Source of the DNA: a virus
Taxonomy: Duplodnaviria > Heunggongvirae > Uroviricota > Caudoviricetes
DNA length: 64,000 nucleotides
Direction: 5' to 3' (one strand)
Virus record (IMG/VR): IMGVR_UViG_2595698394_000001
Coordinates: 81,866 to 145,865 of that record
Below the pieces are notes generated by a model that was not told the origin of the DNA, ran no database searches, and saw only the letters and a list, made by a program, of their open reading frames with translations. The translations under genes and the position numbers were made by a program. Below, piece after piece: positions 2,818 through 49,716 of the stretch; positions within the stretch are counted from its first letter, which is position 1; each line of letters opens with the position of its first letter.

Positions 2818-3162
2818 TTATTTTTTATATGTTCCTACTATTTGCCTTGACTCTCTTTCTCTTTGTCTTTCCTCCATCCAATGTAAAGCTTCTTGTAACT
2901 TTGTTATGGCCGTAGCACTTTCTCTTGAAGGAACTAAAGAGTTTTTAAACTTTAAGTCCTCAATCATCATTGAAAGTAAGGTCTCATGAAGAATACCATC
3001 TACTTTGTCTACTGCCTCTTCTTTTAACCTAGATCCTCTTACAAATCTAATAACTTGAGATACTCCAGGAACTTCTTGAATACCTTTTCCTTCTACTATT
3101 GTCCATATAGGAAGCTCATAATGAGTTCCTACCTCTACTGTTTTAAATTCTCTTTTACTCAT
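2818..3162 (-). CDS. Hypothetical protein (114 aa)
   Basis: ORF track; start and stop abut neighbours. Confidence 0.5.
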   Translation of the reverse strand: MSKREFKTVEVGTHYELPIWTIVEGKGIQEVPGVSQVIRFVRGSRLKEEAVDKVDGILHETLLSMMIEDLKFKNSLVPSRESATAITKLQEALHWMEERQRERESRQIVGTYKK

Positions 3163-3782
3163 CTTGATACGTTGCCTTTTATTAAAAATGTTATTTCTAC
3201 TCTAATATTAGATTTTACATACAAAAACTTTACAGTTTTACCTAAAATCTTACCTAACAAATTAGTGTTATATTTAACTTTAAATGTATAGTCATTTTCA
3301 TTTGGAGTTACTGTAGTTTCTAAACAGCCACAACTCCCTTTTGATGTTACTTTAGCCGCTCCTTCTACTTCTATTTTTAACTCGAAAGTACTATCCTCTC
3401 CATACTTAAGCTCCCCAAGATCAGCTGAAAAGTATAAACCTTCTTTAGCTATCTTTACTTTAGAAGGGGTCATATTAGTTATTTTATGAAGGCTAGATAC
3501 TATCGCCTCTTCTTCTTGCCTTACAGATAACCATTTTTTTATGGGGCAAAACTCAGTATCTATTTTAGCTTTCTCACTTATTGTACAACCACAAGTAGGG
3601 TCAGTACAATGTGCACCTGCTATAAGTTCCCAAGCTTTTCTCCCTGAAGTCTTCTGGTCTTTATCTATGTTCTTACTATTCAAAGTACAAGATGCACATA
3701 TCTCCAGTCTCTTTTCATACCAGTCAGGAAGGGACTCTCCTTGTATAAATCTGGATCTTACTATATTTATAAGCTTACTCAT
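3159..3782 (-). CDS. Hypothetical Cys-rich protein (207 aa)
   Basis: ORF track; 4-nt overlap with the downstream gene; multiple Cys pairs (CASC, CTDPTCGC, CGC). Confidence 0.55.
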   Translation of the reverse strand: MSKLINIVRSRFIQGESLPDWYEKRLEICASCTLNSKNIDKDQKTSGRKAWELIAGAHCTDPTCGCTISEKAKIDTEFCPIKKWLSVRQEEEAIVSSLHKITNMTPSKVKIAKEGLYFSADLGELKYGEDSTFELKIEVEGAAKVTSKGSCGCLETTVTPNENDYTFKVKYNTNLLGKILGKTVKFLYVKSNIRVEITFLIKGNVSR

Positions 3783-5837: not shown

Positions 5838-5912
5838 GCAGAGGTGGGTAAACTGGTAAAGCCGCCCGATTTAGGATCGGGAGTTCTGAGGGTTCGACTC
5901 CCTCTCTCTGTA
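5838..5912 (+). tRNA. tRNA with anticodon TAG (Leu codon CUA) but a short, type-I variable loop; identity uncertain
   Basis: Acceptor gcagagg/tctctgt (2 G-U), anticodon stem cccga/tcggg, loop tttagga, T-arm gagggTTCGACTccctc. Confidence 0.5.
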
Positions 5913-6831: not shown

Positions 6832-6895
6832 CTCAGTTGGTTAGAGTACTTCGCTGATACCGAAGATGTCACAAGTTCGAATCTTGTTATTCCTA
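6822..6895 (+). tRNA. tRNA-Ile (GAT)
   Basis: Acceptor aggaata/tattcct, D-arm gctc/gagt, anticodon stem cttcg/cgaag, loop ctgatac, T-arm acaagTTCGAATcttgt. Confidence 0.7.
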
Positions 6896-6999
6896 CTATA
6901 AGCCTTATCGGGTTAAGGGAAGAGTCACCTGCATTCTTGGTAACAAGATAAAACCTTTAAAAGAAAGACTACACGATAGGAAGAGGTTGCCTATCATTT

Positions 7000-7073
7000 G
7001 CAGCAATCGCATAGCGGCCTATTGCACCTGACTTCCAATCAGGATCTCGTGAGTTCGAATCTCACTTGCTGCA
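7000..7073 (+). tRNA. tRNA-Gly (TCC)
   Basis: Acceptor gcagcaa/ttgctgc, anticodon stem cctga/tcagg, loop cttccaa, T-arm gtgagTTCGAATctcac. Confidence 0.75.
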
Positions 7074-7078
7074 CAAAT

Positions 7079-7152
7079 AGCGAGGTAGAGCAGCTGGTTA
7101 GCTCGCTAGGCTCATAACCTAGAGGTCGGGAGTTCGAGTCTCCCCTTCGCCA
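7079..7152 (+). tRNA. tRNA-Met (CAT), elongator-like (or Ile2); 1:72 is A:C
   Basis: D-arm gagc/gctc, anticodon stem ctagg/cctag, loop ctcataa, T-arm gggagTTCGAGTctccc. Confidence 0.65.
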
Positions 7153-7231
7153 CAAAAGTCGCCCTATGTGTGAAAGCAGCATAGGTTAAGGAGCCTGTAC
7201 ACCTCCAGCAGTTAAGCGACAACTGCTTTAA

Positions 7232-7304
7232 AGTCTATCGGTCCAGTGGAGTGGACGCTGCCCTGTCACGGCAGAGATCACGGGTTCGAGTCCCGTATAG
7301 ACTG
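7232..7304 (+). tRNA. tRNA-Asp (GTC)
   Basis: Acceptor agtctat/atagact, D-arm gtcc/ggac, anticodon stem ctgcc/ggcag, loop ctgtcac, T-arm acgggTTCGAGTcccgt. Confidence 0.75.
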
Positions 7305-7383
7305 CTAAGAGTAAAGAAACGTGATTAAGATAGGATGCCAGCTATGCTGAAGCACTAATACGCTAAAACTTTACTCTTTTTAT

Positions 7384-7457
7384 TCCCTACGTAGCTCAAT
7401 TGGTGGAGCACTGGTTTTGTAAACCAAAGGTTGTCGGTTCGAGTCCGACCTAGGGAT
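7384..7457 (+). tRNA. tRNA-Thr (TGT)? One extra nucleotide at the acceptor/D junction
   Basis: Acceptor tccctac/ctaggga (6 of 7 pairs), anticodon loop tttgtaa, T-arm gtcggTTCGAGTccgac. Confidence 0.55.
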
Positions 7458-7604
7458 CAAAATACACCTCTCGTGAAGTTTTGAAGTGTATTATAAGGTG
7501 AATGCGAAAATACTTTGCTAGCTTTGGGTGGGACATCTACACATGCAACAAAGGACAACTGTTTAGACAACCAGGTATTTTCTGTAAAGCCCACCACCTT
7601 TTTT

Positions 7605-7678
7605 ACCAGATTAGCTCAGGGGTTTAGAGCAACTCTTTTACAAGGAGAAGGTCGATAGTTCGAATCTATCATTTGGTA
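7605..7678 (+). tRNA. tRNA-Val (TAC)
   Basis: Acceptor accagat/atttggt, D-arm gctc/gagc, anticodon loop tttacaa, T-arm gatagTTCGAATctatc. Confidence 0.65.
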
Positions 7679-7689
7679 CTTTATTTTAT

Positions 7690-7762
7690 GGGGGATTAGT
7701 TTAACTGGAAAAACTATAGGCTTCTATCCTATCGAGTAGGGGTTCGAATCCCTTATCCCCTT
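7690..7762 (+). tRNA. tRNA-Arg (TCT)
   Basis: Acceptor gggggat/atcccct, D-arm gttt/aaac, anticodon stem atagg/cctat, loop cttctat, T-arm aggggTTCGAATccctt. Confidence 0.7.
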
Positions 7763-7772
7763 CAATATTTAT

Positions 7773-7846
7773 GGCCTTGTAGCTCAGTTGGTTAGAGCAG
7801 CTCACTCATAATGAGAAGGTCTCAGGTTCGAGTCCTGACTAGGCCA
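7773..7846 (+). tRNA. tRNA with CAT anticodon (Met or lysidine-Ile2), second CAT tRNA
   Basis: Acceptor ggccttg/ctaggcc (one mismatch), D-arm gctc/gagc, anticodon loop ctcataa, T-arm tcaggTTCGAGTcctga. Confidence 0.65.
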
Positions 7847-8025
7847 CAGCATAAATAATAATTAATATATTTGGTAGTTCCATTTATATTTTGTAGTATT
7901 GCAGTATGAAAACAAATTATTGTACATATAACAATTCCAATTGGTCGTTTAGTTACGACACAGGATCGGTATGTACTCTAGGCAGTGATGGATTAATAGG
8001 TTAATTCATTTATAAAGTATATAAA

Positions 8026-8060
8026 GATCCTGTTACGAAAGTAACGGGATTTTTTATTTT
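8026..8060 (+). other. Leader hairpin + T-run 5' of tRNA-Tyr
   Basis: atcctgttac-gaaa-gtaacgggat + TTTTTTATTTT, ending 1 nt before tRNA 8061. Confidence 0.5.
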
Positions 8061-8144
8061 GGGACGGTTGCTCGGCTGGAAGAGGCGCAGGACTGTAAAT
8101 TCTGTAATCCACTAGGAATGGAGGTTCGAGTCCTCCTCGTCCCA
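8061..8144 (+). tRNA. tRNA-Tyr (GTA), type II
   Basis: Acceptor gggacgg/tcgtccc, anticodon stem cagga/ttctg, loop ctgtaaa, ~15-nt variable arm, T-arm ggaggTTCGAGTcctcc. Confidence 0.7.
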
Positions 8145-8243
8145 CGACTACTAAAACAGGTGTAGGTAAGAACTTAAGATAACTTACTTATATGCGGTAC
8201 TTATGTAAAAGAAAACTGTTGGTGTGCCGAGTTGTTTTATAAG

Positions 8244-8331
8244 GAAGGTGAATGAATCGTTGGGATGAGCCTGGTCTTGAAAACCAGTGGAGGTTTAAAA
8301 GCCTTGGGGATCGTGCCCTCCGTCTTCCGCA
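8244..8331 (+). tRNA. Degenerate tRNA-Ser(TGA)-like element, possibly a pseudogene
   Basis: Anticodon arm ctggt-cttgaaa-accag and acceptor gaaggtg/cgtcttc can be paired, but the D- and T-arms are non-canonical. Confidence 0.25.
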
Positions 8332-8414
8332 AGTGCATTATAAAGCACTATAAAGTGTAATGGGTAAGATTTTTCCCAAATATACATAAATTAGTGCCTT
8401 ATATTGCACATTAT

Positions 8415-8501
8415 AGAAAGGTGTCAGAGTGGCTTATTGAGCTAGGTTGCTAACTTAGTGGAGTGAAATACCTTCCGTGGGTTCGAATCCCATCCTTTCT
8501 T
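8415..8501 (+). tRNA. tRNA-Ser (GCT), type II
   Basis: Acceptor agaaagg/cctttct, 3-bp D-stem with a long D-loop, anticodon stem ctagg/cttag, loop ttgctaa, long variable arm, T-arm gtgggTTCGAATcccat. Confidence 0.7.
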
Positions 8502-8531
8502 CTACATATCGCATATCGCAATATGGAATAT

Positions 8532-8619
8532 TCTTGAGTTGCCGTAGTTGGCCGAACGGTCCAGACTGTTAATCTGGTGAGATTTATCTCCATCGTAGGT
8601 TCGAATCCTACCTCAAGAG
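8532..8619 (+). tRNA. Type-II (long variable arm) tRNA carrying anticodon GTT (Asn codon AAC); atypical
   Basis: Acceptor tcttgag/ctcaaga (perfect), anticodon stem ccaga/tctgg (perfect), loop ctgttaa, 17-nt variable arm with gagat/atctc stem, T-arm gtaggTTCGAATcctac. Confidence 0.5.
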
Positions 8620-8763
8620 CTTAGTATAAACTGTGGGTTTACTTGCAGAAGAACAGTCGAAAGTAGAGTGTCCAAAGCTCGTGTTCTTTACCTACCGAGG
8701 GGTTTTGCGTTCAGCGTAAAATTGACCCAAAAGGAATATCGGTTAGCAAGGATACTTTTATAT

Positions 8764-8836
8764 ACTTGAGTAGCTCAGTTGGTAGAGCAGTGGTCTCCAA
8801 AACCAAAGGTCGTAGGTTCGAGTCCTACCTCTCGTG
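8764..8836 (+). tRNA. tRNA-Trp (CCA) with two mismatches in the acceptor stem
   Basis: D-arm gctc/gagc, anticodon loop ctccaaa, T-arm gtaggTTCGAGTcctac; acceptor acttgag vs ctctcgt (pairs 3:70 and 4:69 mismatched). Confidence 0.5.
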
Positions 8837-8858
8837 CTAGTGTGTAACACTATACAAC

Positions 8859-8932
8859 GGGGTTGTAGCTGAGTTGGTACAAGCGTCCGATTGAAGCTCG
8901 GAAGTACGAAGGGTCGAAGCCTTCCTTCCCCA
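8859..8932 (+). tRNA. tRNA-Phe (GAA) with two acceptor mismatches and a G54 T-loop
   Basis: Anticodon stem tccga/tcgga, loop ttgaagc, T-arm gaaggGTCGAAGccttc; acceptor ggggttg vs cttcccc (5:68 and 6:67 are T:T). Confidence 0.5.
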
Positions 8933-8987
8933 CAACGTTGCTTATTAACCACTAAAGTTAATGTTTTGTTTATAATAAGCAACAAAT

Positions 8988-9061
8988 AGTGCTGTGCCTG
9001 AGTGGTCCAAAGGAGATGATTGCAAACCTGAAAATCGTCGGTTCGAATCCGACCAGCACCT
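8988..9061 (+). tRNA. tRNA-Cys(GCA)-like; the ttgcaaa loop is present but the anticodon stem pairs poorly
   Basis: T-arm gtcggTTCGAATccgac, acceptor agtgctg/cagcacc, loop ttgcaaa identical to the canonical Cys loop; only ~1 Watson-Crick pair in the stem. Confidence 0.4.
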
Positions 9062-9090
9062 CTAAATATTTACAATCTACGCACTTTTTA

Positions 9091-9122
9091 CTTGCATATG
9101 TCATTTATTTTTTTTACTTTTG
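9091..9122 (+). promoter_or_regulatory. Promoter-like element (cTTG-N20-TACTTTTG) within a 22-nt repeat ttgcatatgtcatttatttttt
   Basis: Repeat shared with 9731-9752; the -7 box matches TAnnTTTG. Confidence 0.4.
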
Positions 9123-9269
9123 ACATGGCGGGTAGCAGTTACAAGTCGCTATTGTTTCTGTGAATGGTAATATTATATTCTAAAGTCCCTTTAAGCAAAT
9201 AACGTTTAAGACTTAAAATCTTTAAGATCCATGATATTTAAAGAGAGTTCGATTCTCTCCCTGCTATCT

Positions 9270-9386
9270 GGAGTTATAATAGTGTGAATACTAGTTGGCA
9301 TGGATTAGGGTGCAACTTGTAAAACTTAATAGTCTTTTTAAGATGTTTCTTTTTACTTTCCACAGGTTCGATTCCTGTTAACTCTA
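9270..9386 (+). ncRNA. Over-length tRNA-like element (117 nt): good acceptor and T-arm, irregular core
   Basis: Acceptor ggagtta/taactct with T-arm acaggTTCGATTcctgt, but ~45 extra nt between the D-region and the T-arm; a T-arm+acceptor remnant gagagTTCGATTctctc-cctgcta lies immediately upstream (9243-9267). Confidence 0.25.
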
Positions 9387-9572
9387 CATAGTCTCCTTCA
9401 CCGATAAGTAGCTCTTTGAAACAGATTACTTATAATTATCCCTGAGTGAGAATCAGGTTATTTAATTATATAGGTGAAGTAAAACATTCACAGTGAGAGA
9501 ACCGTTAGTTGTGGCATTTTATGCTATAAACGAGCAAACGTCATACTCACTGTGTTTTTATTTTAAGAAGAT

Positions 9573-9725
9573 ATGAAAAGAAGTAAAAAACGATGGAACT
9601 GGACAAATAAATTTAAACGTAAGACATTAAGTCAAGGAAGGCGTAAATGCAAATGCAATTGGTGTCTCAGTATTGAATGGAGAAATAGAAAAAGAATAAC
9701 TGTTAAAAAAGATTTAGAATTATAA
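9573..9725 (+). CDS. Small, highly basic Cys-containing protein (50 aa)
   Basis: ATG..TAA frame translated by hand as MKRSKKRWNWTNKFKRKTLSQGRRKCKCNWCLSIEWRNRKRITVKKDLEL; below the ORF-track cutoff. Confidence 0.3.
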   Translation: MKRSKKRWNWTNKFKRKTLSQGRRKCKCNWCLSIEWRNRKRITVKKDLEL

Positions 9726-9729
9726 GTAA

Positions 9730-9761
9730 TTTGCATATGTCATTTATTTTTTGTACGTTTG
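9730..9761 (+). promoter_or_regulatory. Bacteroidetes-type promoter (TTTG-N20-TACGTTTG), second copy of the 22-nt repeat
   Basis: aTTTGcatatgtcatttattttttg-TACGTTTG. Confidence 0.45.
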
Positions 9762-9762
9762 C

Positions 9763-9882
9763 GGTTCGCTGAGTTTTATTTCTTCTTAATTGATAAATAA
9801 TCTTAAGGGTCCGTAAAAAGACTTATTAAACCTACCTAGGAAGAATTGGCTCAGCGGCTTTGAAAACGGGTAGGTTTTTTTG
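9763..9882 (+). ncRNA. Candidate small RNA (~120 nt) bounded by a promoter and a terminator, no ORF
   Basis: Promoter 9730-9761, then ~70 nt, then hairpin aacctacc...gggtaggtt + TTTTTTT (9828-9882). Confidence 0.35.
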
Positions 9883-10443
9883 TGCTTAAAATTGACGTAA
9901 TAACTTCGAACCGAAAGGGGAGTCAGGCCAAACAGAATCGTAACGGAGAACTGTGGTCTTTACGGGTTTAGTAACTGCACCTTTGGAATAATAAGGATAA
10001 ATAGTGGTGATGTTTGAAGAGGAGGTGAAATCTTCTCGCAATCCGATAAGTTGAAAGTCTAAGGATATAAAAGAGTAAGAGCTTAGCTCTACTAAAGTAG
10101 GAATAACGAAACTACTTTTTTGGTGAGGCCGTAAGGCAAAAACGGCTCTTTTAGAAACCACAGATAAAATCTAATAAGCTGAAAATCAAGTAATTATGAT
10201 TTTTGGTTCTGGACGTGTTCTGTCTGATTGTCAAGGTATTTTAATAGCCTGTCTCTTACTCTTGTGGGTGTTATCTATTTATATTCTACACCTAATAATT
10301 CCCCGAAAGTATTTAGATAACACCTCGTAACCACAGCAATCTAGCTAAATAGATTACACTAGTACTAGGTATTTTGGAATAGTCGTATTTTGTTTAAAAA
10401 TAATTGCTTAAACATTTGGTTTTCTGGTATTTAAGTACTAAAT

Positions 10444-12000
10444 TTGTCTATGACAAAAAATGTAACTATGGGGTTAACTCCTTTTCCAAGACAAGCTATA
10501 GCTATAAGTAAACAAGTCGCTTTTTTAGAAAGTGGTACTACCAAAAAGGGAATATTCGTGTATCCTGTTGCCTTTGGGAAATCTGTTGTTATTGCTAATG
10601 TAGCTCAAAAATTTCCTAACAAGTACTTTATAAACATTTGCCCTAATAAAGAACTTACTGATCAGAACTATAAAAAATTTATTTCTTATGGTTATGAGGC
10701 AGCAGTTTGTTGTGCTTCATTAAATAGAAATGAAATAGGTCAAGTTACTTTTGCAACCATTGGGACTTTAAAAAAACATTTAAATTTCTTTAAGGATAAG
10801 GAAGTAGTTATTTTAGTAGATGAGTGCCAGAACCATTCATTGAAAGGATCCTCCTTGCACACTTTTATCCAGTCAATAAAAAAAGTATTTGTTTTAGGTA
10901 CTACTGCAACTCCTCTAAGGTTAAAATCAGGAATGGGTGGAAGTGAGCTTAGAATGATGAACAGCTACAGAGATTGTTTCTACTCATCTATTGAAGATGT
11001 TGTGCAAATTAGTGAAGTAGTTGCAAATAAAAGGTGGTCGAAACTTATCTATGAGGTAGAGGATATAGATGAGTCATTTTTAAAACTTAATACTACTGGA
11101 ACTGAATATACTGTTTCCTCGTTAAAAGTTTTCTCAGAAAAAAACAATATTTTAGATAAAGCTAAAATTGCTGTAGAAAAACTTATAGCAGAAGGTAGAA
11201 AATCTATCCTAGTTTATATGCCTTTTATAGAAGATGCTGATGCACTAGGCGCAAGTATTGAAGGCTCTGTAGTTTTACACTCAAAAGTATCTGATAGAGT
11301 TAGATTCGATGCAATAGAAGGTTTTAAGTCAGGAAGAATAAAAGTACTGATAAATTGTTTAATTCTTGTTGAAGGGTTTGACTATCCAGAATTATCCTCT
11401 ATAGTAATGTGCAGACCTACTAACTCTATAAATCAGTACTACCAGGCATTAGGAAGGTTAACTAGAGTACATAAAAACAAAAATGACGGTAAGGTTATAG
11501 ATATCTCTGGTAACTTTAACAAGTTTGGTAAGATAGAGGATATTACTTTTGAGAATGAGGAGTGGTGTGGTGGATGGGCAGCTTTTTCTGGAGAAAGGTT
11601 ATTGACAAACTATCCTTTAAACAGTAAAATAGTTCCTACAAAACAGTCTTTAATAGAAGACTACGAAAGGAAGCTTAGAAAAGAGGATCCACTAGACCCT
11701 GTATTTAATTTTGGACAATACAAAGGTAAAAGTTTATTATCTCTGTTAAAAGATAAGACTTATGATTTCAAGTTTAAAATGACAGTAGGGGATAGGGTTG
11801 AAAGTTATATAAATTGGATAGTACAAGAAGATGCCAAAGGGAAATTCTCTTTTTATGGAGAATCAGGGGAAAAACTTAAAAGAGGTATTTACCAGCATTT
11901 AAAACTGCCAATGCCTAATAACAGTAAAAATGTTATAAGTACTACCATAGAAGAAAAACCTGTGACAAGAAATAGTTTAGGCTTCATTGTACCCTTTTAA
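10444..12000 (+). CDS. Superfamily-2 DEAD/DEAH-type helicase
   Basis: Walker A AFGKS, motif II VDECQN, motif III GTTATP, motif VI QALGRLTR. Confidence 0.7.
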   Translation: MSMTKNVTMGLTPFPRQAIAISKQVAFLESGTTKKGIFVYPVAFGKSVVIANVAQKFPNKYFINICPNKELTDQNYKKFISYGYEAAVCCASLNRNEIGQVTFATIGTLKKHLNFFKDKEVVILVDECQNHSLKGSSLHTFIQSIKKVFVLGTTATPLRLKSGMGGSELRMMNSYRDCFYSSIEDVVQISEVVANKRWSKLIYEVEDIDESFLKLNTTGTEYTVSSLKVFSEKNNILDKAKIAVEKLIAEGRKSILVYMPFIEDADALGASIEGSVVLHSKVSDRVRFDAIEGFKSGRIKVLINCLILVEGFDYPELSSIVMCRPTNSINQYYQALGRLTRVHKNKNDGKVIDISGNFNKFGKIEDITFENEEWCGGWAAFSGERLLTNYPLNSKIVPTKQSLIEDYERKLRKEDPLDPVFNFGQYKGKSLLSLLKDKTYDFKFKMTVGDRVESYINWIVQEDAKGKFSFYGESGEKLKRGIYQHLKLPMPNNSKNVISTTIEEKPVTRNSLGFIVPF

Positions 12001-46743: not shown

Positions 46744-47727
46744 ATGAAACAATTTAAAATTATTACAGCTATAATGCTGTTAAGTGTATTTACAGTTAGT
46801 GCCCAAGAGTATTCTAAGTCATCTATCCAAGTAACAGCAGGAGGAACTAAAATACAAGACATAACATCAGTTGAGCTTTTTAATGTTGACTTAGCTTATA
46901 GGTATATGGCTAATACAAAGTTTGGAGCAGAAGTAAACGTAAATTACACGTCTATTCCTGATTATACTACTAAGTATTACACTGCTGGGTTACATGGTGT
47001 AGTGAATGTAGGTAGAGTATTAGGTTTTGAGTCTTTCTCTAAAGATTATACCATCTTAGCAGGGCTTGGAGGGACTTATTCAGACTCTAATGATCCTACT
47101 AATATTTTAGTTTATCATAGAAAATCGAACTTCCATGTGTCTTGGTTTATAGATAATGAGTTTAGGTTAAATAACACTTTATTTTTAAAAGCTGGATTAG
47201 ATGTAATAACAGATGTTAATCATAGACCATTTACAACTGGGCTAAACTCTGAGACAACTAACATAATAAACTTCAATGTAGGAGTAGTTATTAACTTAGG
47301 TAAAAAAGAACATGCCGATTGGCATATTCCAGAAGTAGTTACTAACACTATTGTTGAAAAACATTTTACTACAGTTGAACAACCTATTGATAGAACTATT
47401 ACTAACTATTATCCAGAGAAGGATAACACAGAGTATGTATACTTTGCCAATGATAGTTTTAATATTACACAAGAAGGTTATGATAACATTGAGAACATAG
47501 CTTCAACTAAGGCTCAAATGATATACATTGATGCTTATTGTTCTAATGTAGGTACAGTAGATTATAATAAGACATTAGCAAAGGCTAGAGCTACTGCTAT
47601 TAAATTCTATTTGTTAGAATTAGGTGTATCGGAAGATAGAATAGAAATTACTGCACATGGTATAGATAATAATAGGTCATATAAGATACCTGAATTAGCT
47701 AGACGTGTAGTATTAAGAGCAGAGTAA
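46744..47727 (+). CDS. OmpA-family protein: signal peptide, beta-rich N-terminal region, C-terminal OmpA peptidoglycan-binding domain
   Basis: Signal LLSVFTVSAQE; C-terminus NKTLAKARATAIKFYLLELGVSEDRIEITAHG matches the OmpA_C consensus. Confidence 0.55.
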   Translation: MKQFKIITAIMLLSVFTVSAQEYSKSSIQVTAGGTKIQDITSVELFNVDLAYRYMANTKFGAEVNVNYTSIPDYTTKYYTAGLHGVVNVGRVLGFESFSKDYTILAGLGGTYSDSNDPTNILVYHRKSNFHVSWFIDNEFRLNNTLFLKAGLDVITDVNHRPFTTGLNSETTNIINFNVGVVINLGKKEHADWHIPEVVTNTIVEKHFTTVEQPIDRTITNYYPEKDNTEYVYFANDSFNITQEGYDNIENIASTKAQMIYIDAYCSNVGTVDYNKTLAKARATAIKFYLLELGVSEDRIEITAHGIDNNRSYKIPELARRVVLRAE

Positions 47728-48110
47728 AAATATAAACTCTTTGTTCAAAGATGAGCATCATACTCAGATTGGTAACTCCTCTGCTTAGGCATGAAACTGA
47801 GAGTCCCTGTAAACTGTATCAGCAGTTGTGTTTATTCGAGATGTATAAAGTGAGACGTTTTCTGCAACTAAGTGCCCAAATGAGACACGCAGATTTATAT
47901 CCAGACTGATATTCTGGCGAAGAGTTTTTAAAACAGTAGGTAGCATATTAGGTTTAATGCGTTTACTAAGAATGGAAGCCTATACCTGAATGCGTGTATA
48001 ATGTACTAAAAAGCGCTAGTATGGTTAGTTTTTGTTTGGTGTATAGGTCTTGGTAGCTCCTTGACTGATAAGAGAAGGAGGGTTCGAGCCCCTCTCCTGC
48101 TACTATAATT

Positions 48111-48413
48111 ATGAGTTGTACCTTAAACAACTGTTTTACTAATTTAAAATTAAGATTGATGGCGACAAAAGTAAGGCTGTTTATATGTACTAAAGGTAAT
48201 GGTAGGGGAATATTTGAAGGTCAAACATTAGAAATTTATGGTTCTATGTTTATGATGCATGGTTACTATATATCTCATATTAAAACATATAAAGACTTTT
48301 ATAATAGTACATCTAAATGGAAAGAGGTAAGGACTATAAAAGATTTAACTGAGGAGGAAAGAAATAGTGTGTATATAAAGAGATTATTTCTAGAACATAT
48401 TCCTGTAGTGTAA
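48111..48413 (+). CDS. Hypothetical protein (100 aa)
   Basis: ORF track. Confidence 0.45.
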   Translation: MSCTLNNCFTNLKLRLMATKVRLFICTKGNGRGIFEGQTLEIYGSMFMMHGYYISHIKTYKDFYNSTSKWKEVRTIKDLTEEERNSVYIKRLFLEHIPVV

Positions 48414-49573: not shown

Positions 49574-49716
49574 ACGGGAAAATAAAAGTAAGTAATATGC
49601 ATGATTTAAATAAGCTGCAATATACCATCATGACCCTACTCTTATTAGTGGACTAGTTAATCTTAAATGAATAGGATTCAGCTAATAAGAAAGAGGGCGC
49701 TAATAAAACAAGTAAT

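Follow-up and report, generated by a model that had tools for sequence, protein, structure and literature searches.

A candidate structured RNA family beside an interrupted tRNA-Leu-like gene in an intergenic island of Cellulophaga phage phi4:1

Related RNAs and the phi4:1 island

Few phage non-coding RNAs with a complex fold are known. The closest to the element described below are GOLLD (RF02032; ~800 nt) and ROOL (~580 nt), which are phage-borne and highly structured, combine variable with conserved parts and often lie among phage tRNA genes; the assemblies of GOLLD, ROOL and OLE are built through loop–loop contacts. In the pRNA of phage phi29 the Watson–Crick complementarity of two loops drives RNA–RNA assembly, and to our knowledge this RNA is confined to phi29-like Bacillus phages, where it is found at the genome end. 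Riboswitch aptamers are typically closed by a P1 helix, have conserved bases at a multi-way junction and make a tertiary contact through a loop, and small ribozymes (the twister, hatchet and theta ribozymes) have been found in phage and tRNA-array settings similar to those discussed here. Introns in archaeal and eukaryotic tRNA genes usually interrupt the anticodon loop at position 37/38; we know of no tRNA-splicing endonuclease in Bacteria. The smallest group I introns are ~200 nt in length. A cryo-EM report describes GOLLD, ROOL and OLE as homo-oligomeric RNA-only complexes (PMC12286853).

The 64 kb stretch of DNA analysed here (the window) comes from the marine Cellulophaga phage phi4:1. 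Within it, an island at 47728–48110 separates the stop codon of an OmpA-domain gene (46744–47727) from the next annotated gene (48111–48413). A preliminary description had singled out this island as GC-richer than its surroundings, free of ORFs and ending in a tRNA-like T-arm and 3′ acceptor strand. The composition is as described: the GC content is 0.389 compared with a window mean of 0.321, which places the island at the 95th percentile of 380 nt windows (about +1.8 SD). It matches the GC content of the phi4:1 tRNA array (0.39–0.41), and among the ORF-poor gaps of the window only those with tRNA genes have an island-like value. The T-arm and acceptor ending, gaaggaGGGTTCGAGCCCCtctcctgctacta, is likewise present at 48073–48105 and forms a 5 bp T-stem (48078–48082 with 48090–48094) closed by a TTCGAGC T-loop. 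The island is not, however, the single object that had been described, as it divides into two genes 6 nt apart. On balance, it is probably a pair of plus-strand RNA genes: a structured RNA, here called RNA X, followed by a tRNA-Leu-derived RNA (Table 1).

The thermodynamic signal is flat, with neither strand of the island folding better than shuffled sequence in minimum free-energy calculations (z-score of +0.97 for the plus strand), and the case for the island RNAs rests on comparative evidence rather than on folding energy. Rfam 15 gave no match in the island when the whole window was searched at the gathering threshold. An Rfam search of 47600–48250 with all families at E ≤ 10, of the kind that the preliminary description had proposed, returned a chance match to SNORD93 (17 bits, E = 2.7) and nothing else.

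Table 1. Features of the phi4:1 island in window coordinates.
Feature	Sequence	Position	Strand	Remarks
RNA X, whole element		47733–47928	+	Only window match to covariance model R1; full length, 107.1 bits, E = 2.6e-22
P1, 5′ strand	AAACTCTTTG	47734–47743	+	Pairs with 47918–47927
J1/2 junction	TTCAAA	47744–47749	+	Single-stranded; family consensus YTTGAA; kept in types A and B
P2, 5′ strand	GATGAGCA	47750–47757	+	Pairs with 47829–47836
P3 variable arm		47758–47810	+	Length and sequence vary in the family; base of the arm covaries
Hairpin H	loop TATCAG	47812–47827	+	Stem 47812–47816 with 47823–47827; loop 47817–47822
P2, 3′ strand	TGTTTATT	47829–47836	+	Pairs with 47750–47757
J2/4 junction	CGAGAT	47837–47842	+	Type A consensus GTAGAK; kept in type A, differs in type B
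P4 variable arm	base GTATAAA/TTTATAT	47843–47900	+	Base 47843–47849 pairs with 47894–47900
P5 hairpin	CCAGA/TCTGG, loop CTGATAT	47901–47917	+	Loop 47906–47912
P1, 3′ strand	CGAAGAGTTT	47918–47927	+	Pairs with 47734–47743
ORF gp168 (52 aa)		47751–47909	+	GenBank annotation; wholly inside RNA X
tRNA-Leu(AAG)-like gene		47935–48103	+	With 88 nt insert; ARAGORN intron mode, default thresholds
Acceptor, 5′ strand	AGTAGGT	47935–47941	+	Pairs with 48095–48101; six of seven pairs form
D-arm	GCAT, loop ATTAGGTTTA, ATGC	47943–47960	+	4 bp stem; equivalents of A14, G18–G19 and A21 in loop (sequence and ARAGORN)
88 nt insert		47972–48059	+	Anticodon-loop position 37/38
T-arm	GAGGG, TTCGAGC, CCCTC	48078–48094	+	T-arm of the preliminary description
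Acceptor, 3′ strand	TCCTGCT + discriminator A	48095–48102	+	ARAGORN cloverleaf

Fold and family of RNA X

A core 17-mer and two other conserved motifs recover the same architecture as that of the window element in many viral contigs and in at least 120 marine metagenome contigs. Searches with model R1 gave 72 + 98 matches, which reduce to 143 distinct copies, so that the family comprises at least 143 copies from viral and marine metagenome contigs, with lengths of about 160–340 nt; among deposited phages X is found in Cellulophaga phages only. The window copy has every part by which the family is defined, namely P1, P2, H, P4, P5, the core ACUGUAUCAGCAGUUGUGUUUAUU and the loop pair UAUCAG/CUGAxA. 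As most members were found by exact core motifs, part of the core's invariance stems from the way in which they were collected. A search with a core 20-mer of one bacterial or archaeal genome per species yielded only four MAG contigs, and no host-genome homologue has thus emerged.

The comparative analysis shows a predicted fold in which P1 joins the two ends of X and opens into a four-way junction of P1, P2, P4 and P5, with P2 leading to a three-way junction that bears the variable arm P3 and the invariant hairpin H. In a plain MAFFT alignment 86.2% of the cells are paired, compared with 42–53% when the partners are slid, and changes on both sides occur in 21 of 36 pairs; none of 500 shuffles reaches any of these measures. 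In a model-fitted alignment the values are 91.2% and 26 pairs, where the pair counts of both alignments ignore kinship and those of the second depend on the fitted model. All ten P1 pairs have changed on both sides somewhere in the family (95–97% of cells paired). P2 is paired in 98–99.6% of cells and shows a U–A to C–G double change in four members, and it also contains an almost invariant G–U pair (61 of 62 sequences) that is possible only in the plus-strand RNA. Hairpin H is paired in 99–100% of cells, with a closing pair that is G–C in 52 members and A–U in ten. Changes on both sides are seen in all five basal pairs of P4 across the family, and all four modelled pairs of P5 covary (TCCA/TGGA, CCCA/TGGG, TACA/TGTA, CCTA/TAGG, CTTAA/TTAAG and others).

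The loops of H (UAUCAG) and P5 (CUGAUA) are complementary over 6 bp and the alignments show them to covary, which points to a predicted tertiary contact. A compensatory change is found in one contig (CTAA with TTAG in L144), type B variants pair TTCAG with CTGAA, and a further member (L150) has a different complementary pair; among the 95 P5 loops that face a UAUCAG loop in H, 85 or more retain CUGA. The loop–loop covariation amounts to some two to three independent changes and fits intramolecular and intermolecular contacts alike. The run of T residues that follows P1 is largely paired with the 5′ AAA, and this pairing also covaries (A–U in 37, G–C in 16). The run is therefore part of P1 and not a free terminator tail, a role that was considered for it and ruled out on these grounds. 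The sole terminator-like match in the region comes from the T-arm in antisense orientation.

The sequence of X is identical in phi4:1 isolates and differs by one substitution and one indel in phi17:2, where the substitution (G47919A, in the 3′ strand of P1) converts a U–G pair to U–A. Over 186 nt of X (47733–47918) phi4:1 and phi17:2 show no substitution, compared with 15 differences within 140 nt of the OmpA gene. Comparison of phi4:1 with phi14:2, an unrelated crAss-like phage, gives 87% identity for the 5′ 110 nt of X and 46% for the adjacent OmpA proteins. The two variable arms behave differently in this pair: the P3 arm is 91% identical, while the P4 arms are wholly unlike each other. Across the family, P3 and P4 have been swapped independently between otherwise identical elements (10 discordant versus 13 concordant pairs), which shows recombination within the conserved core. 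A 14-mer from the P3 arm, CTCCTCTGCTTAGG, occurs in 49 viral loci, among which only the entry of phi14:2 itself (L035) also has the core 17-mer of the family.

Taken together, these sequence comparisons make it highly probable that X has a function as a structured RNA and that its family is missing from Rfam. The suggestion of the preliminary description that the island might hold some other large structured RNA thus holds for its 5′ half (47733–47928); the Rfam search through which this was to be recognized gave no family name for X. Rfam also gave no match to X in 14 canonical member loci and nine more (gathering threshold only), and its recovery of GOLLD elsewhere on one of these contigs (L073) shows that the search works. 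No description of X was found in the literature searched, and X may be an unnamed entry among 8,495 candidate viral RNAs (PMC10690425).

X has no sequence or model similarity to GOLLD or ROOL, is smaller than both and, in most of its copies, lies away from tRNAs. It nevertheless has two mutually complementary loops that could by analogy assemble as those of GOLLD and ROOL do, and in contig L073 a single tRNA array contains both X and a genuine GOLLD. With the pRNA of phi29 it shares the presence of two covarying complementary loops in a phage non-coding RNA; it has a different fold, no match to the Rfam pRNA family and variable positions in large Bacteroidota phages with ordinary terminases. 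A topological resemblance, and no more than that, links X to tRNA. In both, the 5′ and 3′ ends pair to close a four-way junction, P5 directly precedes the 3′ half of this closing stem (0–1 nt between them) as the T-arm does, the H loop would meet the P5 loop as the D-loop meets the T-loop at the elbow, and X fills tRNA-sized slots in arrays, 6–8 nt behind one tRNA and 2–14 nt ahead of the next. X differs from tRNA in having no T-loop or D-loop consensus, no anticodon loop, an additional three-way junction and junction strands of 6 nt rather than 1–2 nt, and neither the Rfam tRNA model nor ARAGORN gives it a score.

An interrupted tRNA-Leu-like gene

The preliminary description had reported no 5′ acceptor strand to match the T-arm at tRNA distance. 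Such a strand is present and is followed by a canonical D-arm; it was overlooked because of the 88 nt insert in the anticodon loop. A partner inside the conserved 5′ block of the island was also considered and is rejected because the 3′ acceptor strands of phi4:1 and phi14:2 differ, whereas their 5′ blocks are nearly identical. The gene is the sole extra call of ARAGORN in intron mode in the 64 kb window, and 20 random 64 kb sequences gave one call in total. In default mode ARAGORN found nothing at 47935–48103, and the Rfam tRNA model (RF00005) had no match in 47600–48250 even at E ≤ 10; a gene interrupted in this way is missed by default tRNA finders. The nearest match to the T-arm in the window is the corresponding arm, at 5888–5906, of the tRNA-Leu(TAG) that the phage itself encodes.

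In intron mode the acceptor stem, a D-arm with G18–G19 and a GTTCRA T-arm are found in the register of a tRNA cloverleaf. The gene resembles a class II tRNA-Leu in its 6–7 bp acceptor stem, A73, G18–G19 D-arm, GTTCGA T-loop and the anticodon-loop context CU-AAG-A ahead of the insert. It departs from tRNA-Leu in that a residue is missing between the acceptor and the D-stem (equivalently, 7:66 is mismatched) and in that the variable region has lost its stem, while the tRNA-Leu(CAA)-like counterpart in phi14:2 keeps a long class II variable arm. There is also no arm with a continuous 7 nt anticodon loop: the insert falls at 37/38, as reported by the intron mode, and the five positions of the anticodon stem include one wobble and one mismatch. 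The insert folded alone gives one long irregular hairpin (−19.7 kcal/mol), and in the fold of the whole molecule it forms a continuous helix that extends the anticodon stem. In phi17:2 it is 89 nt in length, with the additional T in the apical loop. A group I intron in a tRNA gene does not fit an 88 nt insert that forms a single hairpin and has no intron family match at E ≤ 10, and the suggestion of an intron or mobile-element remnant likewise found no match among the Rfam group I and group II intron models.

That the gene derives from a tRNA is thus very likely. Its sequence suggests a tRNA-Leu-derived RNA that has kept the acceptor stem, D-arm and T-arm and that is probably unable to decode, because the 88 nt hairpin interrupts the anticodon loop. 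Homologues of 47930–48110 in all of the collected family loci were limited to T-arm matches to ordinary tRNAs.

Two readings of what the gene now does come into question. It could well be a decaying pseudogene without a function of its own, the relic of a tRNA that once stood behind X as tRNAs do in other phages, although we would not call this probable. The split anticodon loop, the variable arm without a stem (unlike that of phi14:2), the acceptor mismatch and the failure of the Rfam tRNA model all point this way, as does the distribution of changes: five of the seven differences between the phi4:1 and phi17:2 islands are in or beside the gene and none is in 47733–47918 of X. One of the five, C48094A, breaks a T-stem pair, and the phi17:2 gene is called only at relaxed thresholds. 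On the other hand, the two acceptor substitutions (A47938G and G48099A) both leave their pairs intact and the fifth change is the apical-loop insertion. The D-arm and T-loop remain canonical, the insert stacks as a continuous helix on the anticodon stem without disturbing the fold, and the gene starts 6 nt past X, within the range of 2–14 nt seen at real tRNAs. In the other reading, the gene would persist because its tRNA shape marks X for processing, or as a tRNA mimic that does not decode. The role of processing signal is put forward here tentatively, as one possibility. It does not extend to the phi14:2 homologue, which cannot set the 3′ end of X there because it follows X only after 190 nt and a terminator-like hairpin.

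Genomic setting and possible roles of RNA X

In the window, X begins 6 nt past the stop codon of the OmpA gene and lacks a promoter-like site. Across the family, the start of 46 of 125 copies (37%) lies at most 30 nt, and usually at most 10 nt, from a stop codon on the same strand, and 48 of 125 (38%) have a same-strand ORF within 80 nt downstream. Some copies stand alone with what is, by its sequence, a Bacteroidetes-type promoter of their own. In the lineage of L092, L072 and L086 a TAnnTTTG motif lies 17–22 nt upstream of X and all substantial neighbouring ORFs are on the opposite strand. A tRNA (Ala, Cys, Pro or Gln), a tmRNA or the phi4:1 Leu-like gene lies 2–14 nt downstream of ten of 134 copies, and 10–11 of 130 copies sit within 12 nt after a tRNA. 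About 8% of the copies are in tRNA or tmRNA arrays and most are not next to tRNAs; the idea of a universal tRNA partner (a tRNA-Cys always downstream of X) was dropped on account of this low share and the range of neighbours found by ARAGORN. Likely phage tmRNAs also travel with X: they were found beside it in three contigs (L055, L073 and L192) and occur in phi14:2 as well.

No conserved protein partner of X appeared when 633 flanking ORFs were clustered, the largest family being present at nine of 65 loci. Pfam searches of the neighbours gave no match for the largest family, and their only matches, to ERF and HNH domains, were in minor clusters; nothing was found for gp169–gp171 of phi4:1 or g003–g004 of phi14:2 either. 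The phi14:2 copy of X belongs to the early module, which is transcribed rightward, and the RNA-seq paper on this phage highlights two intergenic regions, neither of which is X (bioRxiv 10.1101/2020.03.07.982082). An RNA that accompanies X is among the most abundant phi14:2 transcripts (Drobysheva et al.). Together, X and its companion RNAs suggest that early takeover by Bacteroidota phages involves an RNA-based module.

The role that we favour for X, inferred from this context, is that of a trans-acting binder or scaffold, a plausible role that we would place somewhat short of probable. X would be cut out of longer early transcripts; in those copies that have a tRNA, tmRNA or tRNA-like gene 2–14 nt downstream, its 3′ end would come from RNase P cleavage there. 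The H–P5 contact would either lock X into a compact shape or link copies of X into oligomers, and X would then bind or titrate a conserved host factor of Flavobacteriia. An action in trans is suggested because no phage protein travels with X.

A more far-reaching version, in which X founds a new machine-like class of phage RNA, is doubtful. X might form head-to-tail rings or cages, which would assemble through the covarying H–P5 contact in the manner of GOLLD, ROOL and pRNA, or it might be a new ribozyme or a mimic of the tRNA elbow through which Flavobacteriia factors for tRNA processing or translation are hijacked. In either case the swappable P3 and P4 arms would act as modules that set specificity, and X would be part of an RNA island, conserved and expressed early, that marine Bacteroidota phages share, a crAss-like phage among them. 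This island would also hold the tRNA-like gene, a second RNA that reaches very high levels during phi14:2 infection, and a phage tmRNA.

An action of X in cis on its own transcript, whether as a 3′-UTR stabilizer or exonuclease block, an elaborate terminator, an operon processing site or a P1-controlled riboswitch, is unlikely. It would suit the window copy, placed directly behind the OmpA gene and without a promoter-like site, and the many copies with a same-strand stop codon or ORF close by, and the closing P1, the multi-way junction with conserved bases and the tertiary loop contact are traits of riboswitch aptamers. However, X has no consistent place upstream of functionally related genes, its flanking genes being heterogeneous, with no family at more than nine of 65 loci. 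The lineage with its own promoter motif has its substantial neighbours on the opposite strand, other copies lie between tRNAs, and the covarying T-run offers no free terminator tail.

It is less probable still that X is a new self-cleaving or catalytic RNA that processes polycistronic and tRNA-array transcripts of the phage. The compact multi-junction fold with invariant junction nucleotides and a tertiary loop–loop contact would be in keeping with a ribozyme, as would the phage intergenic and tRNA-array settings, but the ribozyme families of Rfam gave no match even at E ≤ 10, and a conserved dinucleotide that could be the cleavage site was not found.

Conservation at the DNA level, with X as a small cassette prone to movement or recombination (MITE-like or PeSL-like) and P1 as its 10 bp terminal inverted repeat, is very improbable. 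Copies do occur in many unrelated contexts, including unrelated phages of the same host, and the independent exchange of the P3 and P4 arms could be read in the same way. Against this, the covariation extends beyond the ends to five internal helices and the loop–loop contact, and no transposase or recombinase is consistently adjacent. Many positions, moreover, allow only G–U-compatible changes, and there is the almost invariant G–U pair; as it would be a C–A mismatch on the other strand, the constraint acts on the plus-strand RNA.

Whichever role applies, X enlarges the set of known phage RNAs by a compact family, strongly supported by covariation and with a defined tertiary contact, that is common in marine metagenomes. 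It is also present in cultured phage–host pairs, which is unusual for such RNAs: phi4:1, phi17:2 and the crAss-like phi14:2 all grow on Cellulophaga baltica. With these hosts and the public strand-specific RNA-seq data from phi14:2 infection (GSE133609), studies of expression, RNA ends, knock-outs and structure are directly feasible.

The weakest readings of the island see in it a protein gene that is small or has decayed (gp168), a tmRNA or an att-type fragment of a tRNA. They are refuted as far as sequence analysis reaches, even though GenBank annotates a 52 aa ORF here and a tmRNA 3′ end or an attachment site would look superficially similar to the T-arm and acceptor strand. For the att site or tRNA 3′ fragment, the 5′ acceptor strand and D-arm that belong to the T-arm are present in cis, and no integrase is found among 18 annotated neighbours. 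A tmRNA has in common with 47935–48103 a tRNA-like acceptor and T-arm that enclose a long intervening structure; the gene differs in its 3:70 pair (U–G rather than G3–U70), its true D-stem and its length of only 169 nt. As in the preliminary description, no ALAA-type or other tag frame was found. The Rfam tmRNA models gave no match at E ≤ 10 and ARAGORN, also in tmRNA mode and at relaxed thresholds, made no such call at the island, while the same tools find real phage tmRNAs in related loci. The one default ARAGORN 'tmRNA*' call in the window, at 8054–8715, is a false positive of the permuted type that covers three tRNAs.

The statement that the island has no ORF goes too far, in that three ORFs of 52–54 aa overlap it and gp168 is annotated there; the gp168 ORF is not conserved. 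The preliminary description had named homology to a decayed protein gene as grounds for abandoning an RNA, and the homologues argue the other way. The gp168 start codon is present in six of 128 family members and missing in 122, it is also missing in phi14:2, and the indels are not multiples of three: the lengths of the 128 elements are spread evenly over the three remainders modulo 3 (41, 45 and 42). The longest stop-free run in the family has a median of 40 codons. Both gp168 of phi4:1 and gp172 of phi17:2 are probably mis-annotations, and RefSeq has dropped the equivalent ORFs from phi14:2.

Composition and division of the island

The island at 47731-48110 lies in the 145.9 kb genome of Cellulophaga phage phi4:1, a Lightbulbvirus (record positions 129515-130065 match window 47650-48200 with 100% identity), between the stop-codon side of an OmpA-domain gene (46744-47727) and gp169 (48111-48413). 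It is GC-richer, as the preliminary description held: its GC content of 0.389, against 0.321 for the window, is at the 95th percentile among 380-nt windows and is close to that of the phi4:1 tRNA array. The remaining ORF-poor gaps of similar GC in the window all contain tRNA genes. The same description found no ORF, but ORFs of 52-54 aa overlap the island, one of them annotated as gp168.

The standard detectors returned little. Rfam at gathering thresholds gave 24 tRNAs and nothing else over the whole window, and at E<=10 over 47600-48250 it gave a single chance snoRNA match, with no tmRNA, intron or other family on the island. ARAGORN made no call there in either default or tmRNA mode, and the folding energy of the island was not better than that of shuffled sequence on either strand. 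Comparative evidence indicates that the island is made up of two parts. The large structured RNA suggested earlier is supported by covariation in the 5' half, which belongs to an RNA family termed X here; the 3' half is a tRNA-Leu-like gene (gene 2).

Features of X and of gene 2 in the window
Feature	Position	Strand	Remarks
P1	47734-47743 with 47918-47927	+	
J1/2	47744-47749	+	
P2	47750-47757 with 47829-47836	+	
Variable arm P3	47758-47810	+	
Hairpin H	47812-47827	+	loop UAUCAG
J2/4	47837-47842	+	
Variable arm P4	47843-47900	+	
Hairpin P5	47901-47917	+	loop CUGAUAU
Gene 2	47935-48103	+	ARAGORN intron mode
Gene 2 insert, 88 nt	47972-48059	+	position 37/38
Gene 2 acceptor			AGTAGGT with TCCTGCT, one mismatch
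Gene 2 D-arm			GCAT-ATTAGGTTTA-ATGC
Gene 2 T-arm			GAGGG-TTCGAGC-CCCTC
Gene 2 discriminator			A

The RNA family X

Phage phi14:2 is a crAss-like Cellulophaga phage, unrelated to phi4:1, with which it has a host species in common. Its layout is similar, with an OmpA gene followed by a long non-coding stretch, and a match of 87% identity starts 27 nt ahead of the OmpA stop codon and continues for ~110 nt into that stretch. The exact 17-mer CTGTATCAGCAGTTGTG from the conserved block occurs in 83 viral contigs, ~55 of which have a larger pattern in common: CTCTTTGaTTGAAGATAAAC, a variable hairpin, AAACTGTATCAGCAGTTGTGTTTATTGTAGAgGT, a second variable hairpin and CCAtAACTGAAATTTGGaCAAAGAGTTTT. Scans with 5' and 3' motifs added members with a deviating core, and at least 120 marine metagenome contigs matched in the motif scan. 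The covariance model R1, built from a plain MAFFT alignment of 31 sequences, found a single copy in the window (47733-47928, 107 bits, E 2.6e-22), 72 copies in viral loci and at least 98 in metagenome loci, with at least 143 distinct sequences. Gathering members by exact motifs accounts for part of the invariance seen in the core. A search of 50,697 deposited phage records found X in Cellulophaga phages phi4:1, phi17:2 and phi14:2 alone, and a scan of one genome per bacterial or archaeal species found the core 20-mer in only four MAG contigs. Rfam matched no family to canonical members, while the same scans detected tRNAs, GOLLD RNA and phage tmRNAs in these loci. No description of X was found in the literature searched; we rate the family as new, although it may stand unnamed among the 8,495 candidate viral RNAs catalogued in PMC10690425.

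The structure was drawn by eye and then tested on the plain MAFFT alignment. Standard pairs occupy 86.2% of cells; the share falls to 42-53% if the 3' partners are shifted by 1-3 columns. Of the 36 pairs, 21 show changes in both partners (counts that ignore kinship); none of 500 shuffles matched any of five measures. An alignment fitted to the model, and hence biased towards the proposed structure, has 91.2% of cells paired and 26 pairs changed on both sides, again ignoring kinship. No base separates P5 from the 3' strand of P1, which places P1, P2, P4 and P5 around a four-way junction; a three-way junction joins P2, P3 and H. In 61 of 62 sequences one of the P2 pairs is G-U, and most of the remaining variation there consists of G-U-compatible changes, which indicates that the constraint acts on the RNA of the + strand of the window. 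Between phi4:1 and phi17:2, positions 47733-47918 are unchanged and the sole P1 substitution converts U-G to U-A. Homologues also speak against X being a coding sequence or the remnant of a protein gene: the ATG of gp168 is present in just 6 of 128 members, and member lengths are spread evenly modulo 3 (41/45/42). Taken together, the comparisons show X to be a conserved RNA, predicted to be compactly folded, whose family is not represented in Rfam 15.

Complementarity between the H loop (UAUCAG) and the P5 loop covers 4 bp (CUGA) in most members and 6 bp (CUGAUA) in the window copy. CUGA is kept in at least 85 of 95 P5 loops where the H loop is UAUCAG. In locus L144 the loops read UAUUAG and CUAAAA, a compensatory change from G-C to A-U; in the divergent subfamily, type B, they are CAUUUCAGAG and ..ACUGAA.., in which UUCAG pairs with CUGAA; and in L150 UUAUC pairs with GAUAA. 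These changes, which represent few independent events, support a contact between H and P5, either intramolecular or intermolecular. Elements that are almost identical elsewhere have exchanged P3 and P4 independently of each other (10 discordant against 13 concordant pairs); this implies recombination within the conserved core. The window and phi14:2 copies are one discordant pair (P3 91%, P4 57% identity), and further swaps with nearly identical remainder and flanks are found, for example, among L072, L086 and L092, among L087, L090 and L078, and between L070 and L076. The swappable arms could possibly be specificity modules.

An interrupted tRNA-Leu-like gene

In intron mode at default thresholds, ARAGORN called a tRNA-Leu(AAG) of 81 nt with an 88-nt insert. 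This was the sole extra intron-mode call in the window, and 20 random 64-kb sequences of matched composition gave one call in total. The T-arm and acceptor noted earlier were found at 48073-48105, and the 5' acceptor strand that had been thought missing is present at 47935-47941. The insert folds as a long irregular hairpin continuing the anticodon stem, so the molecule would be tRNA-shaped, with a long arm and without an anticodon loop. In phi17:2 both acceptor-pair substitutions preserve pairing, a third (C47934T) lies immediately 5' of the acceptor strand, one disrupts a T-stem pair, and the apical loop of the insert has gained one insertion. In phi14:2 a tRNA-Leu(CAA)-like gene with a long variable arm (L002 1760-1851), detected only at relaxed thresholds, has the variable-region start ATAAGAG in common with gene 2. 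Since the Rfam tRNA model gives no score on gene 2 (47600-48250, E<=10), it is filed as probably tRNA-derived and not a working tRNA.

The other origins proposed for the T-arm did not hold. A tmRNA has neither a model match nor an ARAGORN call, and pair 3:70 is U-G; an att-like tRNA-3' fragment is contradicted by the presence of its own 5' half, with no integrase annotated nearby; and the insert, at 88 nt, matches no group I intron model.

In locus L131 (9300-9995) a remnant of a T-arm and acceptor is followed in tandem by a copy of X of type B (9335-9504), ~200 nt, an odd 65-nt tRNA-like unit missed by tRNA finders (9701-9765, AGAGAGT...ACTCTCT) and a copy of X of type A (9775-9995). Non-canonical tRNA-like genes near X are therefore not unique to phi4:1.

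Genomic setting, possible role and neighbouring RNAs

No protein family neighbours X in more than 9 of 65 loci, and Pfam named just two domains, ERF and HNH, both in minor clusters. In the L092/L072/L086 lineage all substantial neighbouring ORFs are on the opposite strand, so that X there is an independent gene, as it is evidently capable of being. Among the matches listed, a Bacteroidetes-type TAnnTTTG lies within 70 nt upstream of 23 of 135 copies, clustering at 17-22 nt, and 37% of copies, including that of the window, have a same-strand stop codon within 30 nt before their start. X repeatedly occupies tRNA-type slots: among the matches listed, a tRNA or tmRNA follows 2-14 nt after ~8% of copies and a tRNA ends within 12 nt before ~8%, and in the window the tRNA-shaped gene 2 begins 6 nt after X. 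In phi14:2, X lies within the rightward-transcribed early module; the published RNA-seq study of that phage singles out other intergenic regions and not this one (Drobysheva et al., bioRxiv 10.1101/2020.03.07.982082).

The gene directly before X in phi4:1 and in phi14:2 is of OmpA-domain outer-membrane type (L002 283-1278 in phi14:2), and the two proteins have only 46% amino-acid identity; in other contigs OmpA does not neighbour X. OmpA and X appear to have been transferred as a pair between a Lightbulbvirus and a crAss-like phage. Among X carriers, the tRNA array of L073 that includes X also contains a bona fide GOLLD (7898-8381, 184.7 bits) in which a tRNA is embedded, and L073 has a tmRNA too; L153 has a DUF805b motif at 463-494.

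We tentatively propose that X is released from early transcripts, that RNase P would form its 3' end where a tRNA-like gene follows, and that it would act in trans, its target being a host component that is itself conserved; the reasons for the latter are that unrelated phages have almost the same bases in the single-stranded junctions and loops of X, and that X has no phage protein as a regular companion. Gene 2 may be kept as a processing signal or non-decoding mimic. A cis-acting role for X is unlikely, catalysis by X would be somewhat less likely still, and a cassette acting at the DNA level is very improbable. The setting of X is like that of GOLLD and ROOL, its topology like that of tRNA, and its covarying complementary loops are like those of phi29 pRNA; by model it belongs to no Rfam family.

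Elsewhere in the window, an ARAGORN permuted 'tmRNA*' (8054-8715) is almost certainly false, as it covers three ordinary tRNAs (Tyr, Ser, Asn), and Rfam found an extra tRNA at 8988-9061 that ARAGORN missed. Long stretches without ORFs >=70 aa adjoin the tRNA array at 1-1658 (GC 0.36) and 9062-10449 (within the ORF-poor gap 6832-10449, GC 0.388); Rfam and R1 found nothing in either.

In phi14:2, NC_021806 4031-4502 (L307 1232-1703) matches the Rfam tmRNA model at 46.0 bits (gathering score 47; E 1.4e-16), begins with GGGGUCGA and carries a T-arm and an acceptor strand of canonical form. This stretch looks like a tmRNA encoded by a crAss-like phage, and falls within the g005-g006 junction, for which the RNA-seq study describes a long non-coding RNA that is very abundant, appears early and persists (Drobysheva et al., bioRxiv 10.1101/2020.03.07.982082). 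The same study names the g004-g005 junction as the other highly transcribed long non-coding RNA. A second intergenic island of the window (49574-49716; blastn match 49609-49708) has 75% identity over 111 nt to this junction RNA (record positions 2905-3589). Rfam gave no match for the phi14:2 copy (E<=0.01) or the window copy (gathering thresholds). Homologues occur in at least 28 loci, 18 of which also have X; in these the homologue is always on the X strand and usually lies 100-560 nt downstream of X. The second island looks like a further RNA family travelling with X.
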